DNA of 44,890 nt from contig PBTO01000115.1 in NCBI GenBank assembly GCA_002726595.1, positions 1 to 44,890 of the forward strand, in the 5' to 3' direction. Position 1 is the first letter of the stretch, and each line of letters opens with the position of its first letter. Under the pieces are notes generated by a model. It made no database searches, was not told the DNA's origin, and worked only from the letters and a program-made list of their open reading frames with translations. Made by a program: the position numbers and the translations under genes. Source of the DNA: Gammaproteobacteria bacterium (lineage in GTDB: Bacteria; Pseudomonadota; Gammaproteobacteria; Pseudomonadales; Pseudohongiellaceae). Positions 15,606-33,563 of this stretch are shown one piece after another.

Positions 15606-15802
15606 ACTTCTATCTCCATCTCCATCAAAGTGAAAATTCAACCCTCGGTTGAATTTAATGCTGGCTGGATTCTATGTCGTGATGGGCGATGCTGCAATGG
15701 ATTGTGTCAGTCCCTGGAAATTTTCGCCCCCGAGTGTGGATAGCAACCCGAAATTCGTTATCATCCCTTACCTGTAATCAATTGCTATCGGGCCAGGCCT
15801 AT

Positions 15803-16507: not shown

Positions 16508-16839
16508 AAAGAGATTTTCCTGCGTACAAGTCTAAACAAGCTGACCGAAGACCATATTCCGGCACAAAAATGTCAAAAAAATGGCGATTTTGAACAATCG
16601 CAACAATCTGACATTTTGTCCTCATTGACGGCTATAAGCGCTTGCTTTTCAGCCCCACTTAATGGGATAGTTAGGCTCGAACAGCTGAAGTACACTGGTT
16701 GGACATGTGGCCTGTGAAAATGCAGCGAAGAACAACAAATATGGGCTTTTTCACGGATTGCCGCACTAGTACCTGATAACACAGGTTGTGACCGGTCAGC
16801 GCCGCTAACCCATCAATAGCCACTGGCAATCGAGAGTCT

Positions 16840-19800
16840 ATGTCTTCTCCCACATTTGATAGTTTGCGACAAACCCTTAAAAGCCTCCGCCGTCGACGCA
16901 GCAATCTTTTCATTCTTCGTCAGGTAAGCATCTGCGCCATAGTAATCGCCCTGCTAGCGTTGCTGATGACTGCAATATCTGCCTCGATGGACCTTGATAA
17001 AGCCGGCACTATCGTACTGTTTGGTATTTCCCTGCTACTGATTGGATCATTACTCTGGCTCTTGTCTCGTACATTGCAACGTCGACACGCGGACGATCAG
17101 CACCTGGCCCACTACGTCGAAGAGCATATTCCCGATTTCGAACAGCGGTTGATTACCTCATTGGAATTTACCGAAGAAGATCTGGTCCATGGTCGCCAGG
17201 GCGTGTCCCGACAATTTATTCAGCATCTGTGGGAGGATGCACAACTTCATGTAGCTGAACAGCAACAGCAGGTAGAGTCGGTAACGCCGGCGCGCGCCTC
17301 CTGGATTTCATTCAGCTCAGCCATGGCGGTGGTCGCTATCGTGGCGGTTATTTTGGTCAGCTCCGATGCCTTGTTCCAAGCGGGCAGTCGGTTAGTCTGG
17401 CCGTTCGCAATTAGTGAGCCGGTCGTGTTTATAGATGTGCCAGCGAATGTAGAGATTAGCGTTGAGCCAGGTGATCTTGAAATGCAGCGGGGCGACAGTC
17501 TCACCATCGTTGCCCGGGTGACTAATGCAATTCCTGGCACGGTGAACTTGCGACTGCAGGAAGATAATGTAAATTGGCGTGATGTCACCATGGCCCGCGA
17601 CGGTAGTGGCAGTGAAAGTGCAACCTACAGTTATTTCCTGCCCTCGCTGCAGGAAGACACCACCTATTATGTAAATTTTGAAGAACGCATTGAGCACAGC
17701 TCTCAGCAATATCGCATCAGTCTGTTTGATTTGCCGCAGATTGAACAGATTGACGTGGCGTTCGATTATCCTGATTACACCGGCCTGGAGGATCTGCTCG
17801 AAGAGGATAGCGGCGACATGGTCGTGCCCGAGGGAACTGAAGTCGGGTTGACAGTTACGTTTAATAAAACTATCGCCAATGCAAATCTTCAATTCGATGC
17901 CCCCTACAGCACCGGTGATGAGGAAGAACTCGAAACAGTGGTTCCTTACGAGGATTTAGTGCTCGCAGTTGATGGCAATATTGGGCGCGCAAGTTTCACA
18001 GTTACCCAGGATGGTGTTTACCACATTTCGGCAACAGATCTGGGCGATCTGGAGACCAAGAATCCACTGGATTATTTTATTCGGGCCATTGAAGACATGC
18101 CACCGGAATTGGAGTTGAAGCGACCCGGTCGGGATGAGGACGTAATGCCGCTGGAAGAAGTAGTGCTGGAGATTGATGCCAACGATGATTACGGACTCAG
18201 TGAGTTTAGTCTTAATTACAGTGTGGTCGGGTTGGATGAGGTTGAAGTTGACTTCTTGCCTGAGCAAAACGTGCGCAATGTGGCAGGCAATGAACTGATC
18301 TATTTGGAGGATCTCGAAGTCGAACCTGGAGATTTTGTCAGTTATTTCCTTACCCTCGCTGATAACAATGGACTGGAAGGCCCGGCGGAAGTTATCTCCG
18401 ACATCTATTTTTTACAGGTTATACCAACCGACCAGGAATTCAGACGCTCCGCCCAGCAAGGCGGCGGTGGCGGCGGCGGTGGCGGCGGTGGTGGTGACAG
18501 CAGTGCATTGGTTTCAATTCAAAAGGATGTCATTGCAGCAACCTGGAAATTGCGTAATCGTCAGAGCAAGGTTTCAGCAGAAGACTTCGCCTCAGATGCG
18601 GAAATAATCGCTGAATCCCAAAGAGAGGCAACCGACCGAGCCCGCATGTCAATCGACCGCCTGGCCGAGCGATTGAATTTCTCCGATGACAGTTATGACA
18701 ATGCAGTTGAGAATTTATCTTTAGCGATCGAGCAAATGAATCTGGCTGCTCTCGAACTGGATATAGAGCAAGTCACCAGTGCCCTGAAGCCGGAACAATT
18801 GGCCCTGCAACATATTCTTAAAGCAGAGGCAGCCATCAATCGAACTGATATAAGCATGCAGCAAGGCGGTGGTGGTGGCGGCGGTGGCGGCGCCCAACAG
18901 GAACGTGAAGATCTGCGTGAGCTGTTCGAGATGGAATTGGGTCAATTGGAAAATCGTTATGAAACGCCGAACAGCGCAGGCGGTGGCGGACAAAACGCAG
19001 AAGAAATAAACAAGCTGGAAGAACTGGCGCGACGGCAGGAAGGTCTGACCAGGGCACAAAGAGAGCTGTCTCGCCGTGAAGAACAGATGACCGAAGAGCA
19101 GAAACGCCGTGAACTGGAGCGCCTGATGCGGCAGCAGGAGCAGTTAAGTGAAGAAGTACAACAGCTTGCCCAGCAGTTGTCTCGTGGCCAGCAAAATTCA
19201 CAATCCCAGTCTCAATCCCAGTCTCAGTCCGGGTCCCAGGCTCAACAGTCGGGCAGTCCCTCTTCCAGCAGCAGTGGTGGACAGCAAGCGCCGCAGACAG
19301 CTCTGGAAAGAGCCGCTCAGCAAATGCAGGAAGCAGCCCAGAGTGAAACGGCATCCATGGCAGCGGCCCGGAGTCAAAAGGCACTGGAAAATCTGCGCGA
19401 GCAGCAACGTGAATTAACCGAGAAGTCCGACCGTTCTGTTAATCAACTGGCGCAAAACCTGGGTCAGCGTGGACAGCAATTGCTGCAACAGCAACGGGAA
19501 TTGCAGCAAGATCTGCAGGATGCCGTTCGTCAGCAGGGCTTGGGGCAGACACGACAATCTGTGCGTAATGATGAGAGCATGCAGGAACTGATCGAAGACC
19601 AACAGCAACAGCAGAGAGATCTGGATGAGATCGAGGAAATGCTGCGGGCGATAGTGGCTCGAGGCGATAACGATGACCAGCGTCTCATGTCGCAGGCGCA
19701 GGAAGCTTCCCGTGAATTACGACCGATCCGGGAGGAGATGCAAACCAGCAATCGCGTGCTGCGAAATGGCATGGTGAATTTGTCGGTGGATATAGAGCAG

Positions 19801-20535
19801 GAGCTGGAAAGTCAGTTAGAAGACTTTGTCCAAAGTTTGCAGGCCTTGAATCCCTCGGCCGCCGGTTCGGCATCGGATCAGATTCAACAGGTAGCCCAGA
19901 GCGCTGAAGATCTAAGAGAACAACTTGAAGATCTGGAACAGCAAGCCCTGGCCTTTAACGAAGCCGGTCAACAGGCAGGCCCGGGAGTGCCATCGTTGCG
20001 GGAAATGCGAGATCAGTTACAGCGCAGTCAACAGCTTGCACAGCAGTTGCAACAACAACTACAACAACAGCAAGGTCAGCCAGGCCAGCAGGGTCAACCC
20101 GGGCAAGGTCAACCAGGCCAGCAAGGCCAACCAGGTCAGCAAGGTGGTCAGTCGGGGCAGCAGGGTGGTCAGCAGGCAGGTGGCCAGCCCGGTCAGAATA
20201 ATAATGGCGGTGCCAGACAAATCGGCGGCGGCAATGCTAATCGGCTTGGCGGTGTCATCGATACCAACGGCAACAATTCTGCCTACGGTGATGCACGGTC
20301 AATTCGGCAGCAACTGACACAACAAGGAATTGAAGATTTTCTAAACCAGCCTGAACTGTTCAGGCAACTTCTTCAGCCCATACTTGAACTCGAAGGTGCG
20401 CTTCGTGCACAGGCAGAGTTGGATAATATTAACAACAAATTGTATGCCACTGTGGACGAGGATATACCCGATGAGTACAAAGATCTGGTTGAAGAATACT
20501 ATCGTGTATTGTCCGAAAACCAGGGGTCACAGTAA
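16840..20535 (+). CDS. Large membrane-anchored, low-complexity coiled-coil protein (DUF4175-like), first gene of the Bat-like operon
   Basis: There are three N-terminal hydrophobic helices and a ~400-aa beta-rich region. These are followed by ~650 aa of Q/E-rich heptad-like sequence with poly-Gly, SQ and GQP/GQQ runs. The position next to MoxR/DUF58/BatA genes matches the DUF4175 context as I recall it. Confidence 0.6.
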   Translation: MSSPTFDSLRQTLKSLRRRRSNLFILRQVSICAIVIALLALLMTAISASMDLDKAGTIVLFGISLLLIGSLLWLLSRTLQRRHADDQHLAHYVEEHIPDFEQRLITSLEFTEEDLVHGRQGVSRQFIQHLWEDAQLHVAEQQQQVESVTPARASWISFSSAMAVVAIVAVILVSSDALFQAGSRLVWPFAISEPVVFIDVPANVEISVEPGDLEMQRGDSLTIVARVTNAIPGTVNLRLQEDNVNWRDVTMARDGSGSESATYSYFLPSLQEDTTYYVNFEERIEHSSQQYRISLFDLPQIEQIDVAFDYPDYTGLEDLLEEDSGDMVVPEGTEVGLTVTFNKTIANANLQFDAPYSTGDEEELETVVPYEDLVLAVDGNIGRASFTVTQDGVYHISATDLGDLETKNPLDYFIRAIEDMPPELELKRPGRDEDVMPLEEVVLEIDANDDYGLSEFSLNYSVVGLDEVEVDFLPEQNVRNVAGNELIYLEDLEVEPGDFVSYFLTLADNNGLEGPAEVISDIYFLQVIPTDQEFRRSAQQGGGGGGGGGGGGDSSALVSIQKDVIAATWKLRNRQSKVSAEDFASDAEIIAESQREATDRARMSIDRLAERLNFSDDSYDNAVENLSLAIEQMNLAALELDIEQVTSALKPEQLALQHILKAEAAINRTDISMQQGGGGGGGGGAQQEREDLRELFEMELGQLENRYETPNSAGGGGQNAEEINKLEELARRQEGLTRAQRELSRREEQMTEEQKRRELERLMRQQEQLSEEVQQLAQQLSRGQQNSQSQSQSQSQSGSQAQQSGSPSSSSSGGQQAPQTALERAAQQMQEAAQSETASMAAARSQKALENLREQQRELTEKSDRSVNQLAQNLGQRGQQLLQQQRELQQDLQDAVRQQGLGQTRQSVRNDESMQELIEDQQQQQRDLDEIEEMLRAIVARGDNDDQRLMSQAQEASRELRPIREEMQTSNRVLRNGMVNLSVDIEQELESQLEDFVQSLQALNPSAAGSASDQIQQVAQSAEDLREQLEDLEQQALAFNEAGQQAGPGVPSLREMRDQLQRSQQLAQQLQQQLQQQQGQPGQQGQPGQGQPGQQGQPGQQGGQSGQQGGQQAGGQPGQNNNGGARQIGGGNANRLGGVIDTNGNNSAYGDARSIRQQLTQQGIEDFLNQPELFRQLLQPILELEGALRAQAELDNINNKLYATVDEDIPDEYKDLVEEYYRVLSENQGSQ
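18460..18495 (+). repeat. (GGY)12 simple-sequence repeat encoding Gly12
   Basis: Twelve consecutive GGC/GGT codons. A second, shorter GGY run begins at 18865. Confidence 0.9.
20074..20196 (+). repeat. Imperfect GQP/GQQ triplet (collagen-like) coding repeat
   Basis: It translates to GQPGQQGQPGQGQPGQQGQPGQQGGQSGQQGGQQAGGQPGQ. The Gly-X-Y register is interrupted once. Confidence 0.8.
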
Positions 20536-20549
20536 ACGGCTCCGTAGTA

Positions 20550-22853
20550 ATGCAATTCACTGAACAAAATTTGCTGGCAGCATTTAGAGAAGGCACTCTG
20601 ACTTTCGCCTATGGCATCAGTGTGCCCCTGTTTCTGCTATTTGTTATATTGATTGTTGTCGGAGTCTGGTTTAGCTACAGAACAACCACCCGGCCCGTGG
20701 CGCAGGAATGGAAAACCTTCCTCGTCGGTATTAGATCTGCCGTCCTCGTGATATTGCTTTTTTGCCTGCTGCGCCCGGTAATTACCACACTGCAGGTATC
20801 ACCCCAGGAAACTTACCTCGGTTTACTAATTGACGATTCCCAGAGCATGTCGATAGAGGACCTGGCGGGTCGGCAATCGCGACAGAGCGCGGTTGAAGAG
20901 TTAATTTTTGAAAATGGATTGTTGGAGGAGCTGGAACAGAACTTTCAGATTCGAACTTTTCGCTTCGACAAGGATACACAGCGAATTTCCGGTGTGGAGA
21001 ACCTTAGCGAAGAGGGCACCGCATCCTCCATCGATCAGGCCTTGAATTACGTAGACGACCAGCTTAACGGTTTACCTCTTGGCGGCATTGTCCTGGTGTC
21101 AGACGGTGCTGACAACAGTGACTCTGATCCCCTTGCCACCGCAGAAAGTTTTGGCGCACGCCAGATTCCCGTATTTACCGTCGGTGTCGGGCAGGAAGAT
21201 ATCCCGCAGGATATTGGCATAGTCGATGTGAGTGCGGCGAAGACGGTGCTCGAAGGATCTGTCTTTAGTGTCCAGGTTGCGGTGAATCATCAGGGGTATG
21301 AAGGAGAGGAAATTGAACTCACCATCATGGACGGTGAGACTGAGGTTGTTGCTGAAACTGTGATTCTTGGATTGGAGGGTGTTACTCGAAGATTTGATCT
21401 TGAACTGACTCCGGAACGGCCCGAGTTGATTGTCTATGATTTGAATATCGAGCTCAGGGATGACGAGATAATTAGTCAAAACAACCACTATAGTTTCCTG
21501 GTGGATAATTCAGAAAAAGATCCGCTGGACATTCTTTACGTGGAAGGCCATCCACGCAACGAATACAAATTTATCCGGCGTGCGGTGGAGGACGACACTT
21601 CATTGCGACTCGCTACCTATTTGCAAACCGGGCCGGAGAAATACTACCGCCAGGGAATAGAAAGTCCAACCGAGTTGAGCAGCGGTTTTCCGGAAGACCG
21701 CGAAGAGCTATTCCAGTATGAAGCAATTATCCTTGGTGATATTGAGAAAGACTTCTTCAATGCAGACCAGCTACAGATGATCGAGGATTTTGTAGCGGAA
21801 AGAGGCGGCGGTTTCCTGATGAGCGGCATGGTGGACGAGGAATTTATCAACACGCCCATTGCCGATATATTGCCCATCACATTGATCGAAGAAAGCTTTC
21901 TTCCCAGCTTCCTGCGTGGCGGCATCCGCCGCGGAGACCATCCAACAGGCGAGTTGTATTTTCCCCGTTTAACAACCAATGGCGAATTTTCGCCGCTGCT
22001 GAGATTGTCCAGCGATGATTCAGAAAACTCGCGCTTGTGGCAACAGCTTCCCGAACTGCAGGGGATTTATGTAACCGGGCGTACCAAGCCAGGCGCTACC
22101 GTGTTAGTTGAGCACCCACTTTTGGTGTACCAGAATCAGGCCCTGCCGCTGGTGGCCACGCAACGATATGGCAGTGGACGCAGTATGTCGGTAACAACCG
22201 CGAGCAGTTGGCGCTGGCAGATGATGTTAGCCTCGGAAGACCAATCCCATGAAACGCTGTGGCGGCAGATGCTCAGGTGGTTATCCGTATCTGCTCCAGC
22301 CCGGATTAGCATCGATTTCGATCGGGAGTTCTACAACGTGGGCGATGAGGTTAATGTCACAGCCACCGTGCTCAATGATCAATATGAGCCCGATAATGAT
22401 GCCATTCTGTGGATGCAGAAAACCGATCCGTTGGATCAAATTACAGATACGCCAATGGAATGGGATATCGAAGAAGATGGTGTCTATCGTTCCAGCTTTA
22501 CCGTCGAGGAAGAAGGCGTGTTTAATCTCCTGGTCGATGTAGCGAGTGCCGCCGGTGATGCAGCCCGGGACAGTTCTGAAAAGCGTACTGCCTTCGTGGT
22601 CACTCCTTCTCTGCGCGAATACACCAATGCCGGTCTCGATAGTGGCTTACTTGCAAGAGTTTCCCAGGCAAGTGGAGGCTCTTATTTCGACATTGACGCG
22701 GCTGGCAACCTCTCTGAGGCCATTGAGTTCACACCAAATGCCTACTCCCAGGAAGTGCAAATTGATCTGTGGGACCGTCCATGGTTATTGGGTCTGTTGA
22801 TTCTCTTGCTGTGTATCGACTGGATAACTCGGCGCATGCGGGGGCTGTCTTGA
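20550..22853 (+). CDS. Membrane-anchored VWA-domain protein with a suspected GATase1-like (ThuA/DUF4159-type) middle domain and a C-terminal TM anchor
   Basis: N-terminal TM helices are followed by the MIDAS motif LLIDDSQSMS and by VLVSDGADNS. A later segment reads ILYVEGHPRNEYKFIRR...YEAIILGDI...GGGFLMSG. The C-terminal helix is WLLGLLILLLCIDWI. Confidence 0.65.
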   Translation: MQFTEQNLLAAFREGTLTFAYGISVPLFLLFVILIVVGVWFSYRTTTRPVAQEWKTFLVGIRSAVLVILLFCLLRPVITTLQVSPQETYLGLLIDDSQSMSIEDLAGRQSRQSAVEELIFENGLLEELEQNFQIRTFRFDKDTQRISGVENLSEEGTASSIDQALNYVDDQLNGLPLGGIVLVSDGADNSDSDPLATAESFGARQIPVFTVGVGQEDIPQDIGIVDVSAAKTVLEGSVFSVQVAVNHQGYEGEEIELTIMDGETEVVAETVILGLEGVTRRFDLELTPERPELIVYDLNIELRDDEIISQNNHYSFLVDNSEKDPLDILYVEGHPRNEYKFIRRAVEDDTSLRLATYLQTGPEKYYRQGIESPTELSSGFPEDREELFQYEAIILGDIEKDFFNADQLQMIEDFVAERGGGFLMSGMVDEEFINTPIADILPITLIEESFLPSFLRGGIRRGDHPTGELYFPRLTTNGEFSPLLRLSSDDSENSRLWQQLPELQGIYVTGRTKPGATVLVEHPLLVYQNQALPLVATQRYGSGRSMSVTTASSWRWQMMLASEDQSHETLWRQMLRWLSVSAPARISIDFDREFYNVGDEVNVTATVLNDQYEPDNDAILWMQKTDPLDQITDTPMEWDIEEDGVYRSSFTVEEEGVFNLLVDVASAAGDAARDSSEKRTAFVVTPSLREYTNAGLDSGLLARVSQASGGSYFDIDAAGNLSEAIEFTPNAYSQEVQIDLWDRPWLLGLLILLLCIDWITRRMRGLS

Positions 22854-23938
22854 TGCTGGCAAACAGAATTGTGAAGAGCAGAATAGTAAGGCGACAGCCA
22901 ATCCTGGCCATGCTGGTACGCGTCGGCATCCTGTGCCTGGGAGTTTCGATGGCCGTGGCACAGCAAGCGCAGGACGAACTCACCAGTGACTATTTTCTCG
23001 ATCGGCCAGACTCGACAAAATACGCAGTCATAATGACCGGCCCCTCAGTGGGGGAAGAAACCACAGCGACTTTCAGACAATGGGCTTTCTCCCTGCACGA
23101 TATTCTGGCACGGGACTACGGTTATAGTTCTGACACCATCACCTTGCTGCTGGATCGCGGGGGGCAAGGTGAACCCGGCAGTGAGCGTATTGACGGCGCT
23201 TGTGATTTAGCGGGGATTCAACAGGGACTTGCCGCCGTGCAATCGCAGGTGAAATCCGGTGATCAAATTTCGATTTTCCTGATTGGACACGGCTCCGGTG
23301 TAGATGAAGAAGCCAAGTTTAATATTGTCGGTCCCGATATAACCGGCGGTGAGTTTGCCGATATGCTGGATGCCTTTTCCGAGCAGGACATTGTGATAAT
23401 AAATTCAACCAGTGCCAGCTATGGATTTTCCACCTCACTTTCTGACGAAGGGCGAGTAGTGATTTCTGCCACCCGCTCCCCGACAGAAAAGTATGATCCG
23501 GTATTCTCTCGCTATTTCATCGAAGCACTGGACAGTCGCAACGGTGATTATGATAAGAATAATCGTGTTTCCATGCTGGAAGCATTTAATTACGCGAAAA
23601 GCAGCGTGGAGCAATGGTATGAAGAGCAGGGGCGGCTGGCATCAGAGCACGCCGGTCTCGATGATAACGGTGATGCGCTGTTCACCCTGAGCCCAACTGT
23701 TGATGAAGCAGATGGTCGGATAGCTGAAATCGCCTATATCGACACCTTGTTGATTAATGACGAAAACCTATCCGAGGAAGCCATAGAATTAAAATCCCAA
23801 ATGCAGGAGCTTGAACGTTCGGTATTTATCTTGAGGGGGAGTAAAGCCGATTTTCTGGAAGCCGATTACTGGCAACAGATGGAAGAACTGCTGGTTGATC
23901 TGGCGCGGACAACAGGACGATTCAATGAGACAAAATAA
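22853..23938 (+). CDS. Exported legumain/peptidase-C13-like (clan CD fold) protein lacking a catalytic cysteine
   Basis: The start ATG overlaps the previous stop (TGATG at 22851-22855), and a signal-like leader ends at AVAQQ. YAVIMTGPS...TITLLLD...ISIFLIGHGS...IVIINSTSASYGF...VVISATRSPTEKY parallels legumain blocks. The His is kept (codon 23288-23290), but there is no Cys after it. Confidence 0.5.
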   Translation: MLANRIVKSRIVRRQPILAMLVRVGILCLGVSMAVAQQAQDELTSDYFLDRPDSTKYAVIMTGPSVGEETTATFRQWAFSLHDILARDYGYSSDTITLLLDRGGQGEPGSERIDGACDLAGIQQGLAAVQSQVKSGDQISIFLIGHGSGVDEEAKFNIVGPDITGGEFADMLDAFSEQDIVIINSTSASYGFSTSLSDEGRVVISATRSPTEKYDPVFSRYFIEALDSRNGDYDKNNRVSMLEAFNYAKSSVEQWYEEQGRLASEHAGLDDNGDALFTLSPTVDEADGRIAEIAYIDTLLINDENLSEEAIELKSQMQELERSVFILRGSKADFLEADYWQQMEELLVDLARTTGRFNETK

Positions 23939-26627
23939 GCAAAAGTCACACATTTTAGTATTGGCACTTGTCCTTGGCAGTGTTTGCTCCCTGCAGGCTA
24001 TTGCGCAGGACGATATTGCTACTGGTGAGTCTGCCCTGTACCGGGGGGAACAACTCTTGTTGAACGGCTCCTACGCCGCCGCAAGTGATGTTTTTCTCCT
24101 GGCCGATGGTCTGGATCGAAATGAAGGTATAGTTGGGGCTAGTAAGGCCTACGCTCTGACCGGCAACTACGTCCAGGCGATGAGGGTATGCGAGGAAGCC
24201 ATAGAAGACGGAGATTATGCACGTTTCCCGCTAATCAGCACGCAGTTGGCAGAAGTCAAGCGGGCTGTGGGTGAATCCAGTGAAGCGCTTGCGATACTGA
24301 GTTCGGTAATCGAAGAGCAATATGAAGCGCCAGTTCGCACACTTGTGCAGTACGGTAGCCTGCTACAGTTTGTCGGACAGAAGCAGGAAGCATTTGAATT
24401 TCTTGATCGGGTAATTCAGCGTTACAACAATGGCCTGGTATTTAGTTCTGAAGATGTTGCCATGGTGGCTCTGGCAAGTTGGCTGCTGGATAATTTTCAT
24501 GATGCCAATAGCCTGTTTAATGAGGCCACGCGTGCCAATCCCAATAATCTTGAAGCCCATACTCTGTGGGGCGATTTATTCCTGGAAAAATACAATGCAT
24601 CCGATGCTGAGCGTTCCTATCAGGCGGCGCTGGATCTAAACCGCCGCTACGTCCCGGCATTGGTAGGTATTACCAAGGTCGTCGGTGATGAGAGAGCGAT
24701 TCAGCGGGCGCTGGCTATCAATCCGCGCTATGTACCGGCACTCGAAGCCTATGGGCAGTTATTGCTGCTCAATAACCGCAAAGAAGAAGCGCAGAGTATT
24801 TTCGATCAGGTTCTGGCCATCAATCCAGAATCCTTGAAAACTCTGAGTGTGCTGGCAGCACAGGCGATGCTGGAAGAGCGGCAGGAAGACTACGACGAGT
24901 TGCTGAGCAGGGTAGAAGCCTTCACTCCCAATAATCCCAAGTTCCTGGGTGATATTGCTGACACCCACGGCAATAGCTACCGGTTCACCGAGGCTGTCGA
25001 ATTTGCTCGTGCCGCGATTGCTGCAGACCCGCAGTACTGGCAGGGGTATACATTACTGGGAAGTAATCTGATTCGCCTGGGCGAGGAAGAAGAAGGCAAG
25101 GCAAATCTCGAAATTGGCTTTGAAAACGATCCTTTCAATGTAATGACTTCTAATATGCTAACGGTGTTTGACACCCTGGCTACCTATACAACCCAGGAAA
25201 GTGAGCACTTCAAGGTGCACATGAGCGAGCATGATGCAGATATACTCTGGCCCTATCTTGAGCCATTACTGGAAGAAGGCTGGACCACACTGACGGAGAA
25301 GTATAATTACGAACCGGAAAGTCCAGTACTAATCGAAATATTTGAGAAAACTGAAGACTTTGCAGTGAGATCGGTCGGCTTGCCCGATATTGGGCCATTA
25401 GTGGGAATTTGTTTCGGCAAGGTTATTACACTGATCTCGCCGGATACACTCACCGCCAACTGGCAGGAAATAGTCTGGCATGAATTCATGCATGTTATAA
25501 CATTACAGATGACAAACAATCGCATGCCGCGCTGGTTGTCGGAAGGCATCTCTGTCTGGGAAGAGCGGGAGGGAAGGCCGTACTGGGGCAGAAGCCAGGG
25601 CCTGGACCTGGTAAGAGCAGCGCAGCAGGACAAGTTGTTGCCCGTAGGTGAGCTAAATTCCGGTTTTACCGGCGCGCGGAATAATGCAGACCTCGGTTTT
25701 GCCTACTTCCAGTCCTATCTGGTAGTGGACTTTATCACCAGCGAATACGGTTTCGATAAACTGGTGGAACTGGTAGATCAGTATGGCCTGATCAAGGAAG
25801 ATAGCGAGAGATTCCAGGAAGTTTTCGGTCAATCACTGAATGCTTTCGACAGTGGCTTTAGTGCCTGGATATCGCGTCGAGTGGAAGAAATTAATGTCTA
25901 CGTTCATACCGAAGATGTGCCGGATGAAGGCGAGGGCCACGGTCACGGGGTAAGAGAAAATGCCAGTGCCATACTGGCTGAACTATATAATAATGCCTCG
26001 CTGAAGCAACTGATGCGTTCGCGAATCGAAGAGAATGCACGGGATTTTCAGGCTCATCTGCAACTCGGTATAGTTCTGTTCAAGGAAGAGGGTTTTATGG
26101 AGGCTAAGTTCTATCTGGAACAGGCCCACGAATTGTTACCAACCTATACAGGCTATCCCAGCCCAGCACTGGTACTGTCCCAGATTTATGAGCAGGAGGG
26201 CAATCGCCCCGCTCAGTTGGAACAACTTGAAATACTGGTAGAGAATCAACAGCATGACTATGACTCGGCGATGATTCTGGCTGAGGCGGCCCTGGAAGGC
26301 GGCGACACTGAAGCGGCAGAATATTATATCGACCGGGCAATCCAGGTCGATCCTTACAGGTCGGACGTGCATGAGCTCAAAGCCAGGTTTGCCGAATCCA
26401 CCGACGATAGCGAACTGGCAGTAACCGAGTATGAAGTGCTGGTAAAACTGGAAATAAACGATCCAGTAGAGGCAAGGACAAACCTGGCGGAGGCGTATTT
26501 GAAAAATGGCCAGGTGCAACAGGCGAAACAAAATATATTGAGTGCGTTGGAAATTGCACCCAGCTACGAGCGGGCTCAGCAGGTATTATTGCAATCTGTG
26601 GATCAAGGTGATGCGCCCACTAATTAA
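23925..26627 (+). CDS. TPR-repeat protein with an embedded peptidase-MA (gluzincin, Peptidase_MA_2-like) domain
   Basis: The start overlaps the upstream gene by 14 nt and the signal peptide ends at LQAIAQD. TPR-like helical repeats lie on both sides of WHEFMHVITLQMTNNRMPRWLSEGISVWEE (HExxH plus a downstream Glu). Confidence 0.7.
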   Translation: MRQNKQKSHILVLALVLGSVCSLQAIAQDDIATGESALYRGEQLLLNGSYAAASDVFLLADGLDRNEGIVGASKAYALTGNYVQAMRVCEEAIEDGDYARFPLISTQLAEVKRAVGESSEALAILSSVIEEQYEAPVRTLVQYGSLLQFVGQKQEAFEFLDRVIQRYNNGLVFSSEDVAMVALASWLLDNFHDANSLFNEATRANPNNLEAHTLWGDLFLEKYNASDAERSYQAALDLNRRYVPALVGITKVVGDERAIQRALAINPRYVPALEAYGQLLLLNNRKEEAQSIFDQVLAINPESLKTLSVLAAQAMLEERQEDYDELLSRVEAFTPNNPKFLGDIADTHGNSYRFTEAVEFARAAIAADPQYWQGYTLLGSNLIRLGEEEEGKANLEIGFENDPFNVMTSNMLTVFDTLATYTTQESEHFKVHMSEHDADILWPYLEPLLEEGWTTLTEKYNYEPESPVLIEIFEKTEDFAVRSVGLPDIGPLVGICFGKVITLISPDTLTANWQEIVWHEFMHVITLQMTNNRMPRWLSEGISVWEEREGRPYWGRSQGLDLVRAAQQDKLLPVGELNSGFTGARNNADLGFAYFQSYLVVDFITSEYGFDKLVELVDQYGLIKEDSERFQEVFGQSLNAFDSGFSAWISRRVEEINVYVHTEDVPDEGEGHGHGVRENASAILAELYNNASLKQLMRSRIEENARDFQAHLQLGIVLFKEEGFMEAKFYLEQAHELLPTYTGYPSPALVLSQIYEQEGNRPAQLEQLEILVENQQHDYDSAMILAEAALEGGDTEAAEYYIDRAIQVDPYRSDVHELKARFAESTDDSELAVTEYEVLVKLEINDPVEARTNLAEAYLKNGQVQQAKQNILSALEIAPSYERAQQVLLQSVDQGDAPTN

Positions 26628-27480
26628 TCAGAGATGCCTCAAATTGGTAAACCGTTGCAGAAGATTACTGGTATTTTTATCTCTGCTGTTGCTGATGCCT
26701 GCGGCATCGGCCCAGGTATTGCTATTCGGTTCCAACGAAGGTCTTGCTATCTATGGTACCGATATCACGGAATTTACCTGGGTTCGAGGTCGCTACACAA
26801 ACCACGGTGGTGGGCGAGGACGTGGACGTGGATATGGCCGACGCGGTGGCTGGTGGGATACCGACTATCCTGACTCGGACGAAAATTTTCTCAGGGGCGT
26901 TCAGCGTTACACCAATATCGATACGAACCCGCGTAATCACGACTTCGTTGAGTTGACCGACCCCAGGCTGTTTGAGCATATCTTCCTTTATATGAATTGG
27001 AAACGTGTTCCCATCGGCTCCACCTTTAGCGGACCCAATTTTACGCCTGAAGAAATTGAAGCACTGCGTGAATTCATGTTCCGTGGTGGATTTGTTATGG
27101 TGGACGATTTTTGGGGGCAGCCCCATCTTGATGACATGTTTATGGAAATGAACAAGATATGGCCGGACCGAGAGATTATTCAGCTCAATACCAGCCATGA
27201 AATATTTCACACTTTCTTCGATATTGACCAGTTGGCTCAGGTTCCAGGACGCATGGTAACCTGGGATCTCGGTGGCTATTTCTCGCTGGATGATCCGAAC
27301 TATCCACCCGCTGTCTATGCCGTACTCGACGACGATGGGCGGGTAATGATGGTTGCCAATTACAATACCGATCTCGGAGATGGGTGGGAACATACTTTCT
27401 ACGAACCCTACCCAACCAAGTACACGAACGAAGCCTATAAGATAGGCATTAATTTTTTAATCTATGCATTTAGTCACTGA
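26611..27480 (+). CDS. DUF4159-like protein with an RG-rich segment
   Basis: The start overlaps the upstream gene by 17 nt and a signal or anchor ends at PAASAQ. The segment GGGRGRGRGYGRRGGWWDTDYPDSDENF...LTDPRLFEHIFLYMNW...EEIEALREFMFRGGFVMVDDFWG fits my recollection of DUF4159. Confidence 0.6.
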   Translation: MRPLINQRCLKLVNRCRRLLVFLSLLLLMPAASAQVLLFGSNEGLAIYGTDITEFTWVRGRYTNHGGGRGRGRGYGRRGGWWDTDYPDSDENFLRGVQRYTNIDTNPRNHDFVELTDPRLFEHIFLYMNWKRVPIGSTFSGPNFTPEEIEALREFMFRGGFVMVDDFWGQPHLDDMFMEMNKIWPDREIIQLNTSHEIFHTFFDIDQLAQVPGRMVTWDLGGYFSLDDPNYPPAVYAVLDDDGRVMMVANYNTDLGDGWEHTFYEPYPTKYTNEAYKIGINFLIYAFSH

Positions 27481-27496
27481 AAGATAGGAACCACCC

Positions 27497-28747
27497 ATGG
27501 CAGAAGAAGAAGTAGAAGCAGCAGCAAAAGTAGCAGAATCAGAAGAAGTAGCTGAAGCGGCTGCATCGGAAGAAGTAACCGAAGCAGCGGAAGAGGCCGA
27601 GGCGACAGAAGCAGAAGAAGTATCCGAAGCAGCTGAGGCGGCGGGAGCAGAAGAAGTAGCCGAAGTTACAGAAGCAGCTGAGGCGGCGGGAGCAGAAGAA
27701 GTAGCCGAAGTTACCGAATCAGCAGATGCGGACGAAGTATTGGAAATTGAAAGTGAGGACGATCTGCTGCTGGTAAAGAAAATGCAGGACGGCAGGGATC
27801 AAATTGTTGGCGAAATAAAGAAAATAATTATTGGCCAGGAAGAGATTATCGATGAGTTGCTTATAGCCCTGTTTGCCGGTGGTCACTGTCTGGTAACCGG
27901 TGTTCCCGGTTTGGCGAAAACACTTTTGATCAAGACTGTTGCCGATATCCTGGAAGTTGACTTCAGCCGGATCCAATTTACACCCGATCTGATGCCGGCC
28001 GATGTTGTCGGTTCGGAAATAGTAGAGGAAACCAGCGGAAAACGGAAACTGAAATTTGTCAAAGGTCCTATTTTTACCAGCATCCTGCTCGCTGATGAAA
28101 TTAATCGAACACCGCCCAAGACCCAGTCCTCGTTGCTGGAGGCGATGGAAGAGAAGCAGGTTACGGCGGCTGGCAAAACCTATCCCATGCTTGCGCCCTT
28201 CTTCGTGCTGGCTACTCAGAACCCGATTGAACTGGAAGGCACCTATCCGCTACCGGAGGCCCAGTTGGACCGGTTCATGTTCAAGATTGAGCTGGGTTAT
28301 TTATCTGAAGAGGATGAGGTTACAGTGGTAAGCACCACTACCCAGACTAACGAAGCCACACTTTCACATCCACTAGGTGGTAAAGATATTCTTGAGTTTC
28401 AACGCATAGCCCGCCAGGTTCCTGCTGCCCAGGCAGTAATTCGATATGCAGTAAGACTGGTACACGCTTCACGCCCACAAAATGAGTCTTCGCCCGATTT
28501 TATAAAAGACTGGGTAAGTTGGGGAGGGGGAATTCGCGCCTCACAGAATCTTATTCTTGCCGGTAAGGTCAGAGCCTTGCTGCTTGGCCGCTACAATGTT
28601 TCCTATGGTGATGTGCGTGCCCTGGCCCATTCGGTAATGCGTCATAGAATTTTACTGAATTTTCATGCCGAGGCGGAACGGGTCACAACCGATGATGTGA
28701 TAACACGATTGCTGGAATCGGTGCCAGAACCGTCATCTGATATTTAA
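27497..28747 (+). CDS. moxR: MoxR-type AAA+ ATPase with an ~85-aa acidic Ala/Glu repeat N-terminal extension
   Basis: Walker A is GVPGLAKT and Walker B is ILLADEINR. The blocks QSSLLEAMEEKQVT and VLATQNPIELEGTYPLPEAQLDRF are typical of MoxR/AAA_3. Confidence 0.9.
   Translation: MAEEEVEAAAKVAESEEVAEAAASEEVTEAAEEAEATEAEEVSEAAEAAGAEEVAEVTEAAEAAGAEEVAEVTESADADEVLEIESEDDLLLVKKMQDGRDQIVGEIKKIIIGQEEIIDELLIALFAGGHCLVTGVPGLAKTLLIKTVADILEVDFSRIQFTPDLMPADVVGSEIVEETSGKRKLKFVKGPIFTSILLADEINRTPPKTQSSLLEAMEEKQVTAAGKTYPMLAPFFVLATQNPIELEGTYPLPEAQLDRFMFKIELGYLSEEDEVTVVSTTTQTNEATLSHPLGGKDILEFQRIARQVPAAQAVIRYAVRLVHASRPQNESSPDFIKDWVSWGGGIRASQNLILAGKVRALLLGRYNVSYGDVRALAHSVMRHRILLNFHAEAERVTTDDVITRLLESVPEPSSDI
27626..27715 (+). 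repeat. Perfect 45-bp tandem duplication in the moxR 5' extension
   Basis: GAAGCAGCTGAGGCGGCGGGAGCAGAAGAAGTAGCCGAAGTTAC occurs at 27626-27669 and again at 27671-27714. Each copy encodes EAAEAAGAEEVAEVT. Confidence 0.9.
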
Positions 28748-28773
28748 GTAGCCTCTGATCAGCAGACATCCCT

Positions 28774-29667
28774 ATGACTGAGACTCTCAATTTTCTGGAC
28801 CCCAAGGTGCTCGCCAGTTTGCATAATCTGGAGCTGCGCGCACGGGTTGTAGTGGAGGGGTTTTTATCCGGATTACACAAGAGTCCGCATCGCGGTTTTA
28901 GCGTTGAGTTTAACGATTATCGCCATTATCAACGGGGCGATGATATGCGCCATGTTGACTGGAAACTCTACGCTCGAAGTGAAAAATTATATATAAAGCA
29001 GTACGAAGATGAGACCAATGTGCGTTGCGTGATCGTTCTGGATACCAGCGCTTCGATGTCTTATACCTCAGGTGGCATAAGCAAGCTCGATTACGGGATC
29101 ACGCTGGCTTCTTCGCTGGCTTATTTCATCATGCGGCAACGGGATGCGGTTGGCCTCATTACCTTCGATGATCAGATTAGAGATTATATTCCGGCAAAAT
29201 GCAGACAGCCGCATTTAATGCGAATATTACGTACGCTCGCCCACGTAGAGGCTGGAGAAAAGACCGATGCGGTGAAGCCGCTTACAGATCTGGCGGCCTC
29301 TCTCCGGAAAAAAAGCATGGTCGTGTTAATCACTGATATGCTGGATGACGAGACACGGGTCATAAATACCTTGCAGAACTTGAGAGGAATGGGCAATGAT
29401 GTCATTGCGTTTCATGTCATGGATGATGCCGAGCTAAATTTTCCGTTTAATGAAGCCTCTGAGTTTATTGATATGGAGAACAATGAATCCTACATCACCT
29501 CACCAGCGGCAATACACAAGTCTTACATGGAAAATTTGAATGAGTTCCTCGAGTTCTGCAAAAAAAAGTGTCAGAGCAGTGGTGTAGATTACTGTCTGCT
29601 GAATACGGCCGAGCCACTGGATGAGGCGCTTTCATCCTACATGACCAAACGCAGCAAGAGTTTCTAG
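28774..29667 (+). CDS. DUF58 (VWA-like) protein, MoxR partner
   Basis: The hallmark block HKSPHRGFSVEFNDYRHYQRGDDMRHVDWKLYARSEKLYIKQYEDE is present. The MIDAS-like motif is VIVLDTSASMS. Confidence 0.85.
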   Translation: MTETLNFLDPKVLASLHNLELRARVVVEGFLSGLHKSPHRGFSVEFNDYRHYQRGDDMRHVDWKLYARSEKLYIKQYEDETNVRCVIVLDTSASMSYTSGGISKLDYGITLASSLAYFIMRQRDAVGLITFDDQIRDYIPAKCRQPHLMRILRTLAHVEAGEKTDAVKPLTDLAASLRKKSMVVLITDMLDDETRVINTLQNLRGMGNDVIAFHVMDDAELNFPFNEASEFIDMENNESYITSPAAIHKSYMENLNEFLEFCKKKCQSSGVDYCLLNTAEPLDEALSSYMTKRSKSF

Positions 29668-29681
29668 GGTAACACTGAACA

Positions 29682-31706
29682 ATGGTCTTTCTCTCACCTC
29701 TATTTCTATTTGGCTTATTGGCAGCGGCACTTCCGATCGCGATTCACCTCATTCGCAAGGAAAAACCACCGAAAATGATGTTCAGTACCATTCGATTTTT
29801 GAAGAAAACGTCGAAGAAACTGATCCTGTTTCAACAGATTCAGCAGTGGCTTCTGCTCCTGTTGCGTGCGGTTGTTATTATGCTGCTGGTAATTGCATTT
29901 GCCAGGCCCCTGGTCGATCAATCGGTATCAAGATTACTGGATGTAGAGCCCCAATCGGTAGTAATTCTTCTGGATAACTCCATGAGTATGCGCTATGGCG
30001 AGAGTTTTGTGGACGCTAAAGCCGCCGCAGTTGAAATTCTGGATGATTTATCCCCAGGTGATGAAGCGGCACTGGTCCTGTTCTCCAATTCTGCCGAAAC
30101 TGTTCGTGAGTTAACAACCGATGTTGATAGCCTGAGAAGTTTTGTTGAGGGTATCGGTCAGCCAGGCTACGGGACCACTCGATATATGCCTAATCTGCGG
30201 CTGGCAGATCAGTTGCTGGAATCATCACGATTTGAAAACCGGGCAGTCTATATGATTTCTGACTATCAGGAAGAAGGACTGGATGGTAGCGATGATAATT
30301 GGAAACTGGCACCCGGCGTAGGCTTCACCGGTATTGATGTGGGTAGCGAGGAAAGTACCAATTTGGTGCTAACCGATGTCAGATCCCCTGAAACCTTGCT
30401 GGAAGATTCTGCCGAGCAGCAGATATTAGTTCGGGTCAGAAGTTCCGGGACGGTACATGTTAGCCAGGGTGAGGTCACACTGGGAATTGATGGCAACCTG
30501 GTGGACCGGGTTCCTGTAGATCTGGCAGATCAATCGGAACAGGTGGTTGATTTGACGGCTGTATTCGACACAGAAGGGACTCATGTTGGAGAGGTAACCC
30601 TGAATGGGGACAGCTTTGCCGTTGACAATAAATTTTATTTCACCGTGGATGTGCTGCCAAAAATCAGGGTATTGGTGGTTAATGGTGAAGCATCAGATGA
30701 CTGGTTTGATGATGAGGGGCACTGGTTTGGGCTTGCCGTTAGTAGTGCAGCAGAATCACCCTTCACTCTTGAATCAGTCGAACCAGCCGCGCTGAGTGCC
30801 GCGTCGTTACGCCAGAATGATGTGGCCGTCCTGCTTAACGTCGGGGATTTGAGTGGATCGCAGGCTGCCGCAGTCAGCTCCTACGTCGAGTCGGGTGGAG
30901 CTCTGCTGATTGCTCCAGGTGACAGAGTAGATGCTGATCGTTTTAATCAACAATTTAGCGAGATTTCTCCAGCATCGCTGCAGTTCCAGGAATCTTCCGG
31001 CCGGGATGATTATCTTGTGATCGCTGATTTCAATAGGCGTCATCCAATATTAAGACCACTGGAAGCTGACTGGTCTGTACGATTTCAGGGGCATTGGACC
31101 ATGACACCAGATGCTGAAGCCGATGTGCTGATGCAATTCGATAATTCTGAACCGGCTTTGGTAGAACGGTCTGTGGGAGAAGGCAAAGTGATACTATTCG
31201 CCTCGACCATGGATCTGGAATGGAACAATTTACCCTTGCAGGCGCTGTTTCTCCCCTTTGTGCATGAGACGCTCAGGCATCTCGTACAGCCTCCTACGAA
31301 GCAACGAGCATACCAGATAGGTGATACCTTCAGTGTGGTATTGGACGGTCAGACGAATGAGGTTCAGGCGCAGGGGCCTGATGGTAATGCCCTGGAATTT
31401 ATCGATGAGAACTTTGTTGTAAATGCGGCAACTCCCGGATTGATTCGTGCAACAGTTGACGGAGTACCACAGACTTATGCTGTCAATGTAATCCCGGAGG
31501 AGTCACGCTTTGCAAAAACCGCCGTTAGCAACCTTTATGACACGATAATTAATCCAGACACCGAGCCATTTCAATCCCAGGCAGTCAGAACCGCTCAACT
31601 CATTGAAGAACTGGAGCGTCCCCAGCGTATTTGGTGGTGGATTTTGAGTCTTGTGATGTTGTTATTAGTGGCCGAAGTCCTAGTTGCTAACAGAACCTAC
31701 CGTTAG
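29682..31706 (+). CDS. BatA-type protein: N-terminal double-TM aerotolerance-regulator domain, VWA domain and C-terminal TM anchor
   Basis: The N-terminus is MVFLSPLFLFGLLAAALPIAIHLI...STIRFL. The MIDAS motif is VVILLDNSMSMRYG. A suspected GATase1-like segment reads IRVLVVNG...GGALLIAPG. The C-terminal helix is WWWILSLVMLLLVAEVLV. Confidence 0.8.
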   Translation: MVFLSPLFLFGLLAAALPIAIHLIRKEKPPKMMFSTIRFLKKTSKKLILFQQIQQWLLLLLRAVVIMLLVIAFARPLVDQSVSRLLDVEPQSVVILLDNSMSMRYGESFVDAKAAAVEILDDLSPGDEAALVLFSNSAETVRELTTDVDSLRSFVEGIGQPGYGTTRYMPNLRLADQLLESSRFENRAVYMISDYQEEGLDGSDDNWKLAPGVGFTGIDVGSEESTNLVLTDVRSPETLLEDSAEQQILVRVRSSGTVHVSQGEVTLGIDGNLVDRVPVDLADQSEQVVDLTAVFDTEGTHVGEVTLNGDSFAVDNKFYFTVDVLPKIRVLVVNGEASDDWFDDEGHWFGLAVSSAAESPFTLESVEPAALSAASLRQNDVAVLLNVGDLSGSQAAAVSSYVESGGALLIAPGDRVDADRFNQQFSEISPASLQFQESSGRDDYLVIADFNRRHPILRPLEADWSVRFQGHWTMTPDAEADVLMQFDNSEPALVERSVGEGKVILFASTMDLEWNNLPLQALFLPFVHETLRHLVQPPTKQRAYQIGDTFSVVLDGQTNEVQAQGPDGNALEFIDENFVVNAATPGLIRATVDGVPQTYAVNVIPEESRFAKTAVSNLYDTIINPDTEPFQSQAVRTAQLIEELERPQRIWWWILSLVMLLLVAEVLVANRTYR

Positions 31707-32709: not shown

Positions 32710-33563
32710 TTCCACCATTCCCTCACAGCACCTCCTTCTCGACAGCAAAAACCGAACGTGAGCCACCCATGACCATGGATCATAAGGATCGCATGGACCC
32801 GTTAAATAGGAGGGGTTGATTCTGTGGAATTTGTAATTAGATCGCTAAAGAAGAAACTTGAAAGTAACTCAATGCTTTAGAAAAGGGGGGGAACAAAGAA
32901 AAACTCCCAAGCCTCTTTCTTTAGCTCCTCAAAACCCGCAGACATTTTCCATGATGCCGCAATGCTCTGAAGTTTGAAAATACTAACACAGCCACTTGCG
33001 ATTCTTTTTAAGGGGTTACAATTTGTCACAATGGATCCAGCAGGTTTCGGCGCCGCGTTGGACCTTGCCAATGTTCACTGCGCTCCAGGCATTTTCTTTT
33101 GAATCGAATCGCCAGACGTGGCAAAAGCCAGCGAACGAACGTTTGGTCGAAATGAGGTTAATTTCTGGGTTCATCTTCAGATTTGGAGCCGCTAGTCAGG
33201 GAAATCATCTGTTACGGGATCCAGTGTCAGGCTCGATAGTGACGATCTTGCCAGGTATAGTCCAGTAAACCCGTTTTCTGCCTGGATAAGCCTGGTACAG
33301 GATTTCCATTATAATTTTCGGGTTTATAATACAGAGTGCCATGTATATTTTTATATAAACGGCCGCAGATATTATCGGGCTCCCTGCCTTGATTCCACGC
33401 CAGAGTAGTCTTTACAGAAGAAAACAGGAATTTGGTGGCTCAAGCCGGTCATTGGGAATACTATTGGCCTTCTGTCTCATAGCAGGTCGTGGAGATAGGT
33501 ATCGCCGTAGGTAATATGCAATCGATCAGGCAGTTCTTTGGTCAGGTGAAGAGGTAGACATTC

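Follow-up and report, generated by a model that had tools for sequence, protein, structure and literature searches.

What is a MoxR-type AAA+ ATPase for, when its gene lies next to genes for a DUF58 protein and for a membrane protein with BatA and VWA domains? Few bacterial gene clusters that lack a known mechanism are as widespread as MoxR-DUF58-BatA/VWA operons; MoxR/VWA operons are known to vary, and the domains concerned are individually familiar. The Bat locus was reportedly described in 1999, and deletion studies are said to have given weak or conflicting phenotypes. The question is raised again by a DNA stretch of 44,890 nucleotides (contig PBTO01000115.1, assembly GCA_002726595.1; called the window here, at its full length) from the metagenome-assembled genome (MAG) of a marine gammaproteobacterium whose nearest relatives lie within Pseudohongiellaceae. 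In the window, the MoxR-DUF58-BatA core forms part of a row of eight genes on the + strand (16840-31706), numbered g1 to g8 in window order and encoding a DUF4175 membrane protein (g1), a BatA-type membrane protein (g2), a legumain-fold protein (g3), a gluzincin with tetratricopeptide repeats (TPRs) (g4), a DUF4159 protein (g5), the MoxR ATPase (g6), the DUF58 protein (g7), and a further BatA-type membrane protein (g8) (Table 1). Is this a Bat operon that has grown locally, or a system of its own, and what could it do? We found that the eight-gene set is an ancient, widespread, and self-contained module present in at least three phyla rather than a local expansion.

A pattern scan with a single genome for each GTDB species yielded at least 596 loci with a g3 relative, the best 80 of which were analyzed by searching the eight window proteins against all open reading frames (ORFs) of each locus; the denominators given below for single genes are the loci with enough flanking sequence. 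By the organism named in the record title, these best 80 of at least 596 loci came from Acidobacteriota (51 loci), Gemmatimonadota (17), Gammaproteobacteria (4), Betaproteobacteria (1), Clostridia/Heliobacteriaceae (4), and unclassified organisms (3). The four loci labeled Heliobacteriaceae, Heliomicrobium, or Clostridia (L003, L013, L018, and L027) have a cluster similarity typical of Acidobacteriota and are probably binning errors in the source MAGs.

The same eight families were encoded on one strand in 78/79 loci. We found g2 in 69/69 loci, adjoining g3 in every one, and orthologs of g4 in 57/68, g5 in 41/59, g6 in 54/59, g7 in 51/56, g8 in 43/52, and g1 in 37/46 loci, the last usually after g8. 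The commonest order was g2-g3-g4-(g5)-g6-g7-g8-g1, often with a second DUF4159 paralog ahead of g2; g1 came first in the window and in its close relatives L001 and L002, and the genes of one betaproteobacterial locus ran g6-g7-g8-g1-g2-g3. The window order is a cyclic permutation of the commonest one, and all orders open one conserved circular order. Evaluation of the 80 loci for other conserved neighbors revealed no further family in more than 6 flanks; the module is self-contained. A tblastn search of plasmids with g8 located the full set on the 1.1-Mb plasmid 1 of a cultured bacterium, Gemmatirosa kalamazoonensis KBS708, while g5 as a query returned only an isolated DUF4159 gene. Synteny between the window and L001, a 6.6-Mb contig, extends into the housekeeping flanks. 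An initial sequence-only reading of the window had described an expanded operon with two protease-like "inserts". The five genes that it set beside the MoxR-DUF58-BatA core indeed proved to be conserved with this core across phyla; the term insert has to be given up, as the peptidase-fold genes belong to an old and widespread module and are not peculiar to this genome.

We then examined the architecture of the cluster in the window. All eight ORFs are open, and the junctions from g1 to g8 measure, in order, +14, -1, -14, -17, +16, +26, and +14 nt; the g2/g3 junction is a TGATG at 22851-22855, and 14-nt and 17-nt overlaps join g3 to g4 and g4 to g5. The co-directional layout, the coordinates, the junction range of +26 to -17 nt, and the three overlaps had all been read correctly from the sequence, as borne out by a check of ORFs and junctions. 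No unrelated gene lies inside the cluster. Gaps of 332 nt on the 5' side and 208 nt on the 3' side set it apart from unrelated genes (QTMAN-like glycosyltransferase, GST, SDR, and NUDIX genes 5'; a small TPR-like ORF, an SDR gene, and a two-component pair 3'), with which it shares a uniform GC content. The eight genes form one conserved module, probably transcribed as a single operon. Consensus scans for sigma-70 promoters and terminators gave counts close to those in shuffled sequence, none above, and were of no help in delimiting transcription units, and an Rfam scan of the window found no RNA family. A low-confidence candidate promoter, of the extended -10 type, lies about 170 nt 5' of g1; its hexamers and TG fall within the only block of the intergenic region 16508-16839 that is conserved in L001 (especially 16605-16690), with a variable spacer, and the consensus scan missed it because its -35 hexamer matches at 3/6 positions.

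Analysis of the products with profile hidden Markov models (HMMs) upheld the family guesses made from the sequence for DUF4175, VWA, Peptidase_MA_2 plus TPR, DUF4159, AAA_3/MoxR, DUF58, and BatA plus VWA. Besides the TIGR02226 domain, NCBIfam offered no equivalog among its models for the eight proteins, and its TPR matches all lay far below their cutoffs. The statement that nearly every product has a signal peptide or a transmembrane (TM) anchor holds for 6/8, the two others, MoxR and DUF58, being devoid of any hydrophobic segment. Also as first read, the set contains three DxSxS metal ion-dependent adhesion site (MIDAS) motifs, located in g2, g7, and g8.

The two cytoplasmic proteins have strongly conserved motifs. 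In g6, the Walker A motif (G135-x-P-G-L-A-K-T142) and the Walker B residues (D200-E201) are at least 90% conserved in 60 homologs. The protein also matches the bpMoxR model at 41 bits, AAA_3 being a far better match at 207 bits. Its acidic, E/A-rich N-terminal extension of ~95 amino acids (aa) (27497-27790) contains in-frame tandem repeats with periods of 45 and 81 nt (27545-27731); alignment with orthologs from other phyla starts only near residue 86, and the ortholog of L001 is 383 aa long. The extension may be a lineage-specific regulatory or pseudosubstrate tail, or else the true start may be Met96. The MIDAS motif of g7, DTSASMS at residue 90 (D90-S92-S94), is identical in 55/55 homologs. 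An adjacent DUF58 gene is what defines the MRP subfamily of MoxR proteins according to the passage of PMC12067865 that cites Snider and Houry, and here the DUF58 gene begins 26 nt 3' of the MoxR gene.

On the membrane side of the module are g8 and g2. g8 matches BatA (PF07584) at 68 bits, TIGR02226 at 75 bits, and VWA_2 at 52 bits; it begins with a double-TM N-terminal domain, continues with VWA, Ig-like (CARDB-like), and ThuA/GATase1-like parts, and ends in a TM helix. g2 has the same arrangement: its N-terminus holds two TM helices, VWA, Ig-like, and GATase1-like parts come next, and a TM helix lies at the C-terminus. A phmmer comparison among the eight window proteins detected no paralogy; profile-profile alignment with hhalign identified g2 as a full-length paralog of g8 (99.7%, E 1e-26, 547 columns) and aligned the DUF58 protein g7 to the VWA domains of both. 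The "second membrane VWA protein" of the sequence-only reading thus keeps its VWA domain and becomes, more precisely, a BatA-type paralog of g8. The g8 MIDAS motif, DNSMSMR at residue 98 (D98-S100-S102, with T166 and D194), is identical in 48/48 homologs, and DxSxS of the g2 motif, DDSQSMS at residue 95 (D95-S97-S99), is kept in 71/72. Hydropathy and the positive-inside rule, from which we derived all topologies, predict for both proteins an N-terminus outside, a K/R-rich loop inside (~34 aa in g8 and ~15 aa in g2), periplasmic VWA, Ig-like, and GATase1-like parts, and a C-terminal helix leading to a short basic tail. In the g8 loop (residues 22-55), H22, L23, F34, and F39 are at least 90% conserved. 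Experiments on BB0173, a BatA-like protein in the inner membrane of Borrelia, gave a topology that agrees with this prediction, with a periplasmic VWA domain (PMC5700661). g8 has no Cys at all, and the only two Cys of g2 are both in TM helices; since the mature or periplasmic parts of all three GATase1-like proteins (g2, g5, and g8) lack Cys, these modules are not amidotransferases.

Two loci from unclassified MAGs, L026 and L057, encode very close relatives of g2 (E ~1e-153) followed by g3, the other six families being absent within 10 kb. In L026, a co-directional row of five ORFs, none with a Pfam match, lies 5' of g2, and an enolase gene lies 3' of g3.

The remaining membrane protein, g1, matches DUF4175 (PF13779) at 31.4 bits, against a cutoff of 27.3, over residues 303-463. 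This weak assignment is solid because eight orthologs from other phyla match the same profile region at 30-61 bits; the alphaproteobacterial NCBIfam model TIGR02302 did not match g1. The predicted topology comprises a basic cytoplasmic N-terminus, a TM hairpin (helices 29-47 and 57-75), a cytoplasmic segment of ~80 aa (76-155), and a third TM helix (156-174), followed by a periplasmic part of ~1,050 residues in which a beta-rich region gives way to Gly runs and then to a Q/E-rich, low-complexity, coiled-coil-like tail of ~500 residues.

We then analyzed g3, the protein that had been called legumain-like without a catalytic Cys. The window protein has no match in Pfam, NCBIfam, or the sequences of PDB chains, and its close homologs number in the hundreds and are unnamed or "hypothetical", with one labeled "caspase family protein". 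An exhaustive search (E <= 1e-3) placed it in a family of 1990 clusters at 50% identity. An AlphaFold2 (AF2) model built from 40 diverse homologs reached a predicted local distance difference test (pLDDT) score of 90.3; it replaced a first model from 20 close homologs (pLDDT 63), which already pointed to metacaspases and legumain. The best Foldseek match was prolegumain (6ysa, E 7e-10), and legumains, peptide asparaginyl ligases, PIGK of the glycosylphosphatidylinositol (GPI) transamidase, and metacaspases followed, all between 7e-10 and 1e-6 (prolegumain and legumain, 7e-10 to 1e-7). The family profile also matches Arabidopsis metacaspase-4 (AtMC4) at E 1.6e-8. Among the 40 relatives, 26 match Peptidase_C13 (E <= 1) and 11 match EF-hand_5; two longer relatives, with 27.9 and 31 bits, pass the Peptidase_C13 (PF01650) cutoff of 22.8. 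The legumain-like assignment is thus supported by the relatives and by the fold, and Ser187 indeed takes the place of the Cys.

This register was established by HMM alignment to metacaspase-4 and by hhalign alignment to human legumain. In both alignments, His146 corresponds to the catalytic His, Ser187 to the catalytic Cys, and Ser189-Gly190 to the conserved S-G after the nucleophile; the equivalent of legumain Asn42 is not conserved in the family. Following a cleavable-type signal peptide, g3 carries, in order, His146-Gly147, Ser187-Ala188-Ser189 at the site of the Cys motif, an EF-hand-type loop (D232-E243), and a C-terminal helical domain. Over 122 representatives with 27-55% identity, G145-H146, D162, S189, T207, and S240 are each 99% conserved, D232, E243, and E265 are present in 122/122, and position 187 is Ser in 80%. 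The H146/S187/S189 triplet reads H/S/S in 72/81 genomic loci, with Thr at position 187 in 5 more. In the window protein (S-A-S), no Cys occupies the site under either register. g3 would most likely be a substrate-binding or regulatory pseudopeptidase and, less likely, an atypical Ser-dependent hydrolase.

A minority of g3 relatives have an x-C-S-G site with Cys188 (L051 and L081; P0137, P0145, P0155, P0178, and P0267); they may be active cysteine peptidases and lend themselves to comparison with the majority that lacks the Cys. In P0245 (538 aa), another relative, a g3-like domain is linked to TPR repeats, which may be a g3-g4 fusion, and in P0220 (613 aa) the partner of the g3-like domain is a MacB-like periplasmic core domain; both could be gene-calling merges or real fusions pointing to physical association. 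Twin-arginine export, suggested by an RR in the signal peptides of g3 and g5, was rejected for g3, whose N-terminus is not conserved among close homologs.

Next to g3, g4 has an apparently intact peptidase site. It matches Peptidase_MA_2 at 65.8 bits (cutoff, 32.4) over residues 456-649, with many TPR matches on either side. The predicted zinc site, HEFMH at residue 519 (H519-E520-x-x-H523) plus E540, is identical in 61/61 homologs from other phyla. A sequence search of the PDB gave matches to the TPR regions only and found no solved or characterized close relative. The secreted protein g5 matches DUF4159 (PF13709) at 126 bits (cutoff, 25.9), is weakly similar to the GATase1-like part of g8 (hhalign, 69%), and has as its only solved relative an uncharacterized protein, 4i66. 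Many genomes (L010, L015, L025, L031, L048, L051, and others) have two DUF4159 paralogs, one 5' of g2 and one between g4 and g6. The single g5 of the window occupies the second position, yet it is closer to the first paralog (1e-36 to 1e-49) than to the second (1e-18 to 1e-31).

What could such a set of proteins do together? We propose, with a probability of about one half, that they form a VWA/peptidase complex in the periplasm, anchored in the inner membrane and serviced from the cytoplasm by a MoxR-DUF58 AAA+ motor. What the analysis shows is gene content, motifs, fold, synteny, and predicted topology; how the parts interact, how they are coupled across the membrane, and what they act on is inferred as follows. 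The MoxR hexamer (g6) would grip DUF58 (g7), by analogy with NorQ/NorD and RavA/ViaA, and DUF58 would dock on the conserved K/R-rich BatA loops of g8 and g2 and perhaps on the cytoplasmic segment of g1; these loops and this segment are the only predicted cytoplasmic parts of the membrane subunits besides termini and tails. ATP hydrolysis would assemble the periplasmic complex or switch its conformation, and the periplasmic MIDAS sites would bind acidic residues of partner or substrate proteins. g4 would be the working peptidase, to which its TPR arrays would recruit substrates, and g3, invariably beside g2, would bind substrates or regulate the complex rather than, as seems less likely, hydrolyze with its Ser. 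The most likely physiological role would be the processing or quality control of envelope proteins, hence envelope integrity, as has been reported for the simpler operon RL3499-RL3502 of Rhizobium.

Several observations weigh against this proposal. g4 is missing beside g3 in 11/68 loci and g5 in 18/59, so neither the peptidase-fold gene nor the DUF4159 gene is strictly obligatory in cis, and five loci have g2-g3 only. Cys is found at position 188 of g3 in 5/122 representatives and in 2 loci, within a T-C-S-G motif resembling the caspase QACRG; from this minority with a caspase-like motif, it follows that the g3 family descends from Cys peptidases. We know of no experimental precedent in MoxR systems for coupling from the cytoplasm to the periplasm. 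Finally, Leptospira with all bat genes deleted showed no phenotype, its growth and oxidant tolerance being unchanged, and the Leptospira bat cluster has internal promoters (PMC3557215).

A second explanation, rather unlikely in our estimate, is that the products build a scaffold or adhesion complex. MoxR-DUF58 would act once, helping the large BatA-type and DUF4175 proteins to fold or to enter the membrane. The mature complex would be a periplasmic scaffold, structural or ligand binding, made of VWA, Ig-like, GATase1-like, and coiled-coil parts, and the peptidase-fold proteins would do no more than mature the subunits of this complex. The general account of MoxR proteins as chaperones of maturation (PMC3893208; PMC13036017) fits such a single action, and the missing nucleophile Cys of the GATase1-like modules and the missing catalytic Cys of g3 suggest that much of the complex is nonenzymatic. 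The ~500 residues of Q/E-rich, coiled-coil-like sequence in g1 likewise suit a scaffold. The invariance of HExxH...E across phyla argues, however, for continuing catalysis by g4, and the TPR arrays around its peptidase domain suggest the recruitment of external substrates. This explanation overlaps with that of a serviced VWA/peptidase complex, and the chief difference is mainly the target.

The serviced complex could also be taken further. The AAA+ motor might act via the BatA loops to switch the periplasmic VWA/MIDAS domains, in an integrin-like "inside-out" manner, and thereby gate an ATP-dependent periplasmic protease, with g3 as the first His-Ser clan-CD enzyme or as a substrate receptor. 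We regard this version as speculative and unlikely; if true, it would make proteolysis depend on ATP in a compartment that contains none.

g3 could instead be the center of a transpeptidase or protein-anchoring machine, cleaving a C-terminal signal and transferring the protein to an envelope acceptor in the manner of legumain-type ligases and the GPI transamidase, with the VWA proteins and g4 as accessories. Peptide asparaginyl ligases and PIGK are indeed among its structural matches, it always adjoins a membrane subunit, and His146, Ser189, Asp162, and Thr207 are ~99% conserved. The Cys that would form the acyl-enzyme is nevertheless absent from the window protein and from most of the family, we are aware of no Ser nucleophile in a clan-CD enzyme, and no candidate substrate family bearing a sorting signal recurs near the cluster in the 80 loci. 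We consider this machine improbable.

An oxidative-stress ("aerotolerance") system, as first proposed for the Bacteroides Bat operon, is still harder to defend and seems very improbable. Bat loci have the core of MoxR, DUF58, and BatA domain in common with the module, but most of its hosts are aerobic bacteria of soil or marine habitats, its proteins include no redox domain and hardly any Cys in their periplasmic parts, and bat deletion in Leptospira left oxidative-stress tolerance unaltered (PMC3557215).

The module could finally be suspected of being a MoxR-vWA conflict or defense system (Kaur et al. 2020) in which the effectors are caspase-like proteins and metallopeptidases. Such effectors, rarely metallopeptidases and many of them inactive, do occur in these systems (PMC7159879), and g6 also scores on the bpMoxR model. 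Yet AAA_3 is by far its better match, 6/8 products are membrane or secreted proteins, and Pfam found no VMAP, iSTAND, FtsH-type, or cytoplasmic effector domain, the third component of conflict systems, among the eight proteins. The flanks are housekeeping genes syntenic with a relative, and the gene content is uniform across phyla, without diversification. As none of the eight proteins matched a PADLOC model, we rejected the defense reading, which appears extremely improbable. That the core and the other genes were juxtaposed by chance, as loci without g4 or g5 might suggest, is refuted by synteny, the same families following the same circular order in Acidobacteriota, Gemmatimonadota, and Gamma- and Betaproteobacteria between variable flanks.

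The phyla that carry the cluster (Acidobacteriota, Gemmatimonadota, and Proteobacteria) dominate soils and oceans. A peptidase with an invariant site makes the question of the substrate testable and gives an enzymatic handle on the unexplained Bat/MoxR envelope systems, and the cultured carrier G. kalamazoonensis KBS708 makes experiments possible on a 25-year-old question. The g3 family, which has kept the His and the Ca-type loop and lost the Cys, bears on the evolution of clan-CD peptidases and pseudoenzymes.

Table 1. Genes of the eight-gene cluster and candidate promoter, with positions in the window
Feature	Description	Length (aa)	Position	Strand	Basis
Candidate promoter	TTGCTT-N18-(TGG)GATAGT, extended -10 (TTGCTT-N18-TGGGATAGT)		16642-16671	+	~170 nt 5' of g1; low confidence
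g1	DUF4175 membrane protein	1231	16840-20535	+	Pfam, hydropathy, composition
g2	BatA-type membrane protein	767	20550-22853	+	Pfam VWA and GATase1_like; MG2 weak
g3	Secreted or anchored protein with predicted legumain/metacaspase fold	361	22853-23938	+	AF2 model, Foldseek, family profiles
g4	Secreted TPR-gluzincin-TPR protein	900	23925-26627	+	Peptidase_MA_2 and TPR matches, cleavable-type signal peptide
g5	Secreted DUF4159 protein, GATase1-like fold	289	26611-27480	+	Pfam DUF4159, cleavable-type signal peptide
g6	MoxR-type AAA+ ATPase, cytoplasmic		27497-28747	+	AAA_3 207 bits, AAA_lid_2 41 bits
g7	DUF58 protein, cytoplasmic VWA-like adaptor		28774-29667	+	DUF58 162 bits, VWA_2
g8	BatA-type membrane protein	674	29682-31706	+	Pfam BatA, VWA_2, ThuA, CARDB; NCBIfam TIGR02226

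Several features of the surroundings deserve mention. The gene that follows the cluster, ORF9 (31915-32709), begins 208 nt 3' of g8 and encodes a 264-aa secreted protein with weak TPR similarity; homologs were found only in L001, as two tandem copies. It could be a lineage-specific add-on to the cluster, and the ~850 nt behind it (32710-33563), without an ORF of more than 90 aa, may hold a decayed second copy. On the other side, the 3' end of the NUDIX gene (15689-16507) contains a 21-nt tandem repeat of 3.4 copies (16432-16502) that encodes a Gly-Glu-Thr-rich C-terminal peptide repeat. A gene for an MltD-like lytic transglycosylase (SLT and LysM domains; 799-3138) lies directly 5' of the QTMAN-like gene in L001 and ~8.5 kb from it in the window, where a multicopper-oxidase fragment, PD40, metallo-beta-lactamase-fold, gamma-glutamyltranspeptidase, FAA hydrolase, and NHL-repeat protein genes lie in between. 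Farther 3', on the - strand (40681-42453), a 590-aa protein combines 2OG-Fe(II) oxygenase and GDP-fucose protein O-fucosyltransferase-like domains, a fusion unusual for a bacterium.

How, then, does the module compare with known systems? Literature searches on DUF4159, DUF4175, and DUF58 with peptidases found no description of the cluster in the papers searched; a match for DUF4175, Acinetobacter AdvA, came from an unrelated context, and a Helicobacter match for DUF58 actually concerned DUF583. The core belongs to the MRP-type MoxR-DUF58-BatA kind, known from the Bacteroides bat locus, Borrelia bb0170-bb0176, the Leptospira bat genes, and Rhizobium RL3499-RL3502. The cluster shares with the bat-type operons of Bacteroides fragilis, Borrelia, Leptospira, and Rhizobium leguminosarum a MoxR AAA_3 gene that adjoins those for DUF58 and for a double-TM VWA protein with a BatA domain, as well as a gene for a TPR protein, and the fusion of the BatA double-TM domain to VWA, a feature of the Bat operon, is present in g8. 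Among the eight proteins, Pfam (E <= 0.01) found neither a BatD-type protein nor a BatE with TPR and SH3, the sole TPR protein carrying a peptidase domain; without BatD or SH3, the cluster is not a full Bacteroides-type Bat operon (BatA-E). The epithet "Bat-like" is therefore apt for the core, which resembles that of Bacteroides, and not for the rest. Unlike bat operons, the module has two long paralogous BatA-type proteins with GATase1-like domains, a TPR protein with an intact gluzincin domain, and legumain-fold, DUF4159, and 1,231-aa DUF4175 proteins as conserved members. In Rhizobium, RL3499 (MoxR) and RL3500 (DUF58) are needed for growth on complex TY medium (PMC5118466), and RL3499 is mentioned in PMC3893208 in connection with membrane integrity and morphology. 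A precedent for a link between an MRP MoxR protein and an envelope peptidase is Mycobacterium tuberculosis MoxR1, reported to interact with the cell wall peptidase RipA (PMC12067865).

NorQ/NorD, RavA/ViaA, and CbbQ/CbbO likewise pair a MoxR hexamer with a MIDAS-bearing VWA-type partner encoded alongside. In NorQ/NorD, the only MoxR/VWA mechanism solved so far, a finger of the VWA protein is inserted into the AAA+ pore, and the client is remodeled as the adaptor is twisted and stretched by the ATPase (PMC13036017). Systems of this type act on cytoplasmic or membrane enzymes, by metal insertion or remodeling, whereas the presumed clients here are mostly periplasmic, and the adaptor is, in contrast to those of the NorD type, a DUF58 protein.

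g3 resembles legumain and PIGK (MEROPS C13) and the metacaspases (C14) of clan CD in its predicted fold, in the His-Gly at the equivalent strand end, and in the S-G after the nucleophile position, and its C-terminal helical domain recalls prolegumain. Metacaspases are Ca dependent, and g3 carries an acidic Ca-type loop. It differs from both groups in having Ser187-Ala188-Ser189 in place of the Cys, no conserved equivalent of Asn42, and an inserted EF-hand-type loop, and in being a bacterial, periplasmic protein encoded within a MoxR cluster. g4 is like other Peptidase_MA_2 gluzincins of clan MA(E) in its HExxH, its downstream Glu ligand, and a Pfam score over the cutoff, and differs from them in that the domain lies between two TPR arrays in a 900-aa secreted protein. 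What is new compared with these known systems is a fixed set of eight families across phyla, g2 as a paralog of BatA, and g3 as a large legumain-fold family devoid of the Cys.

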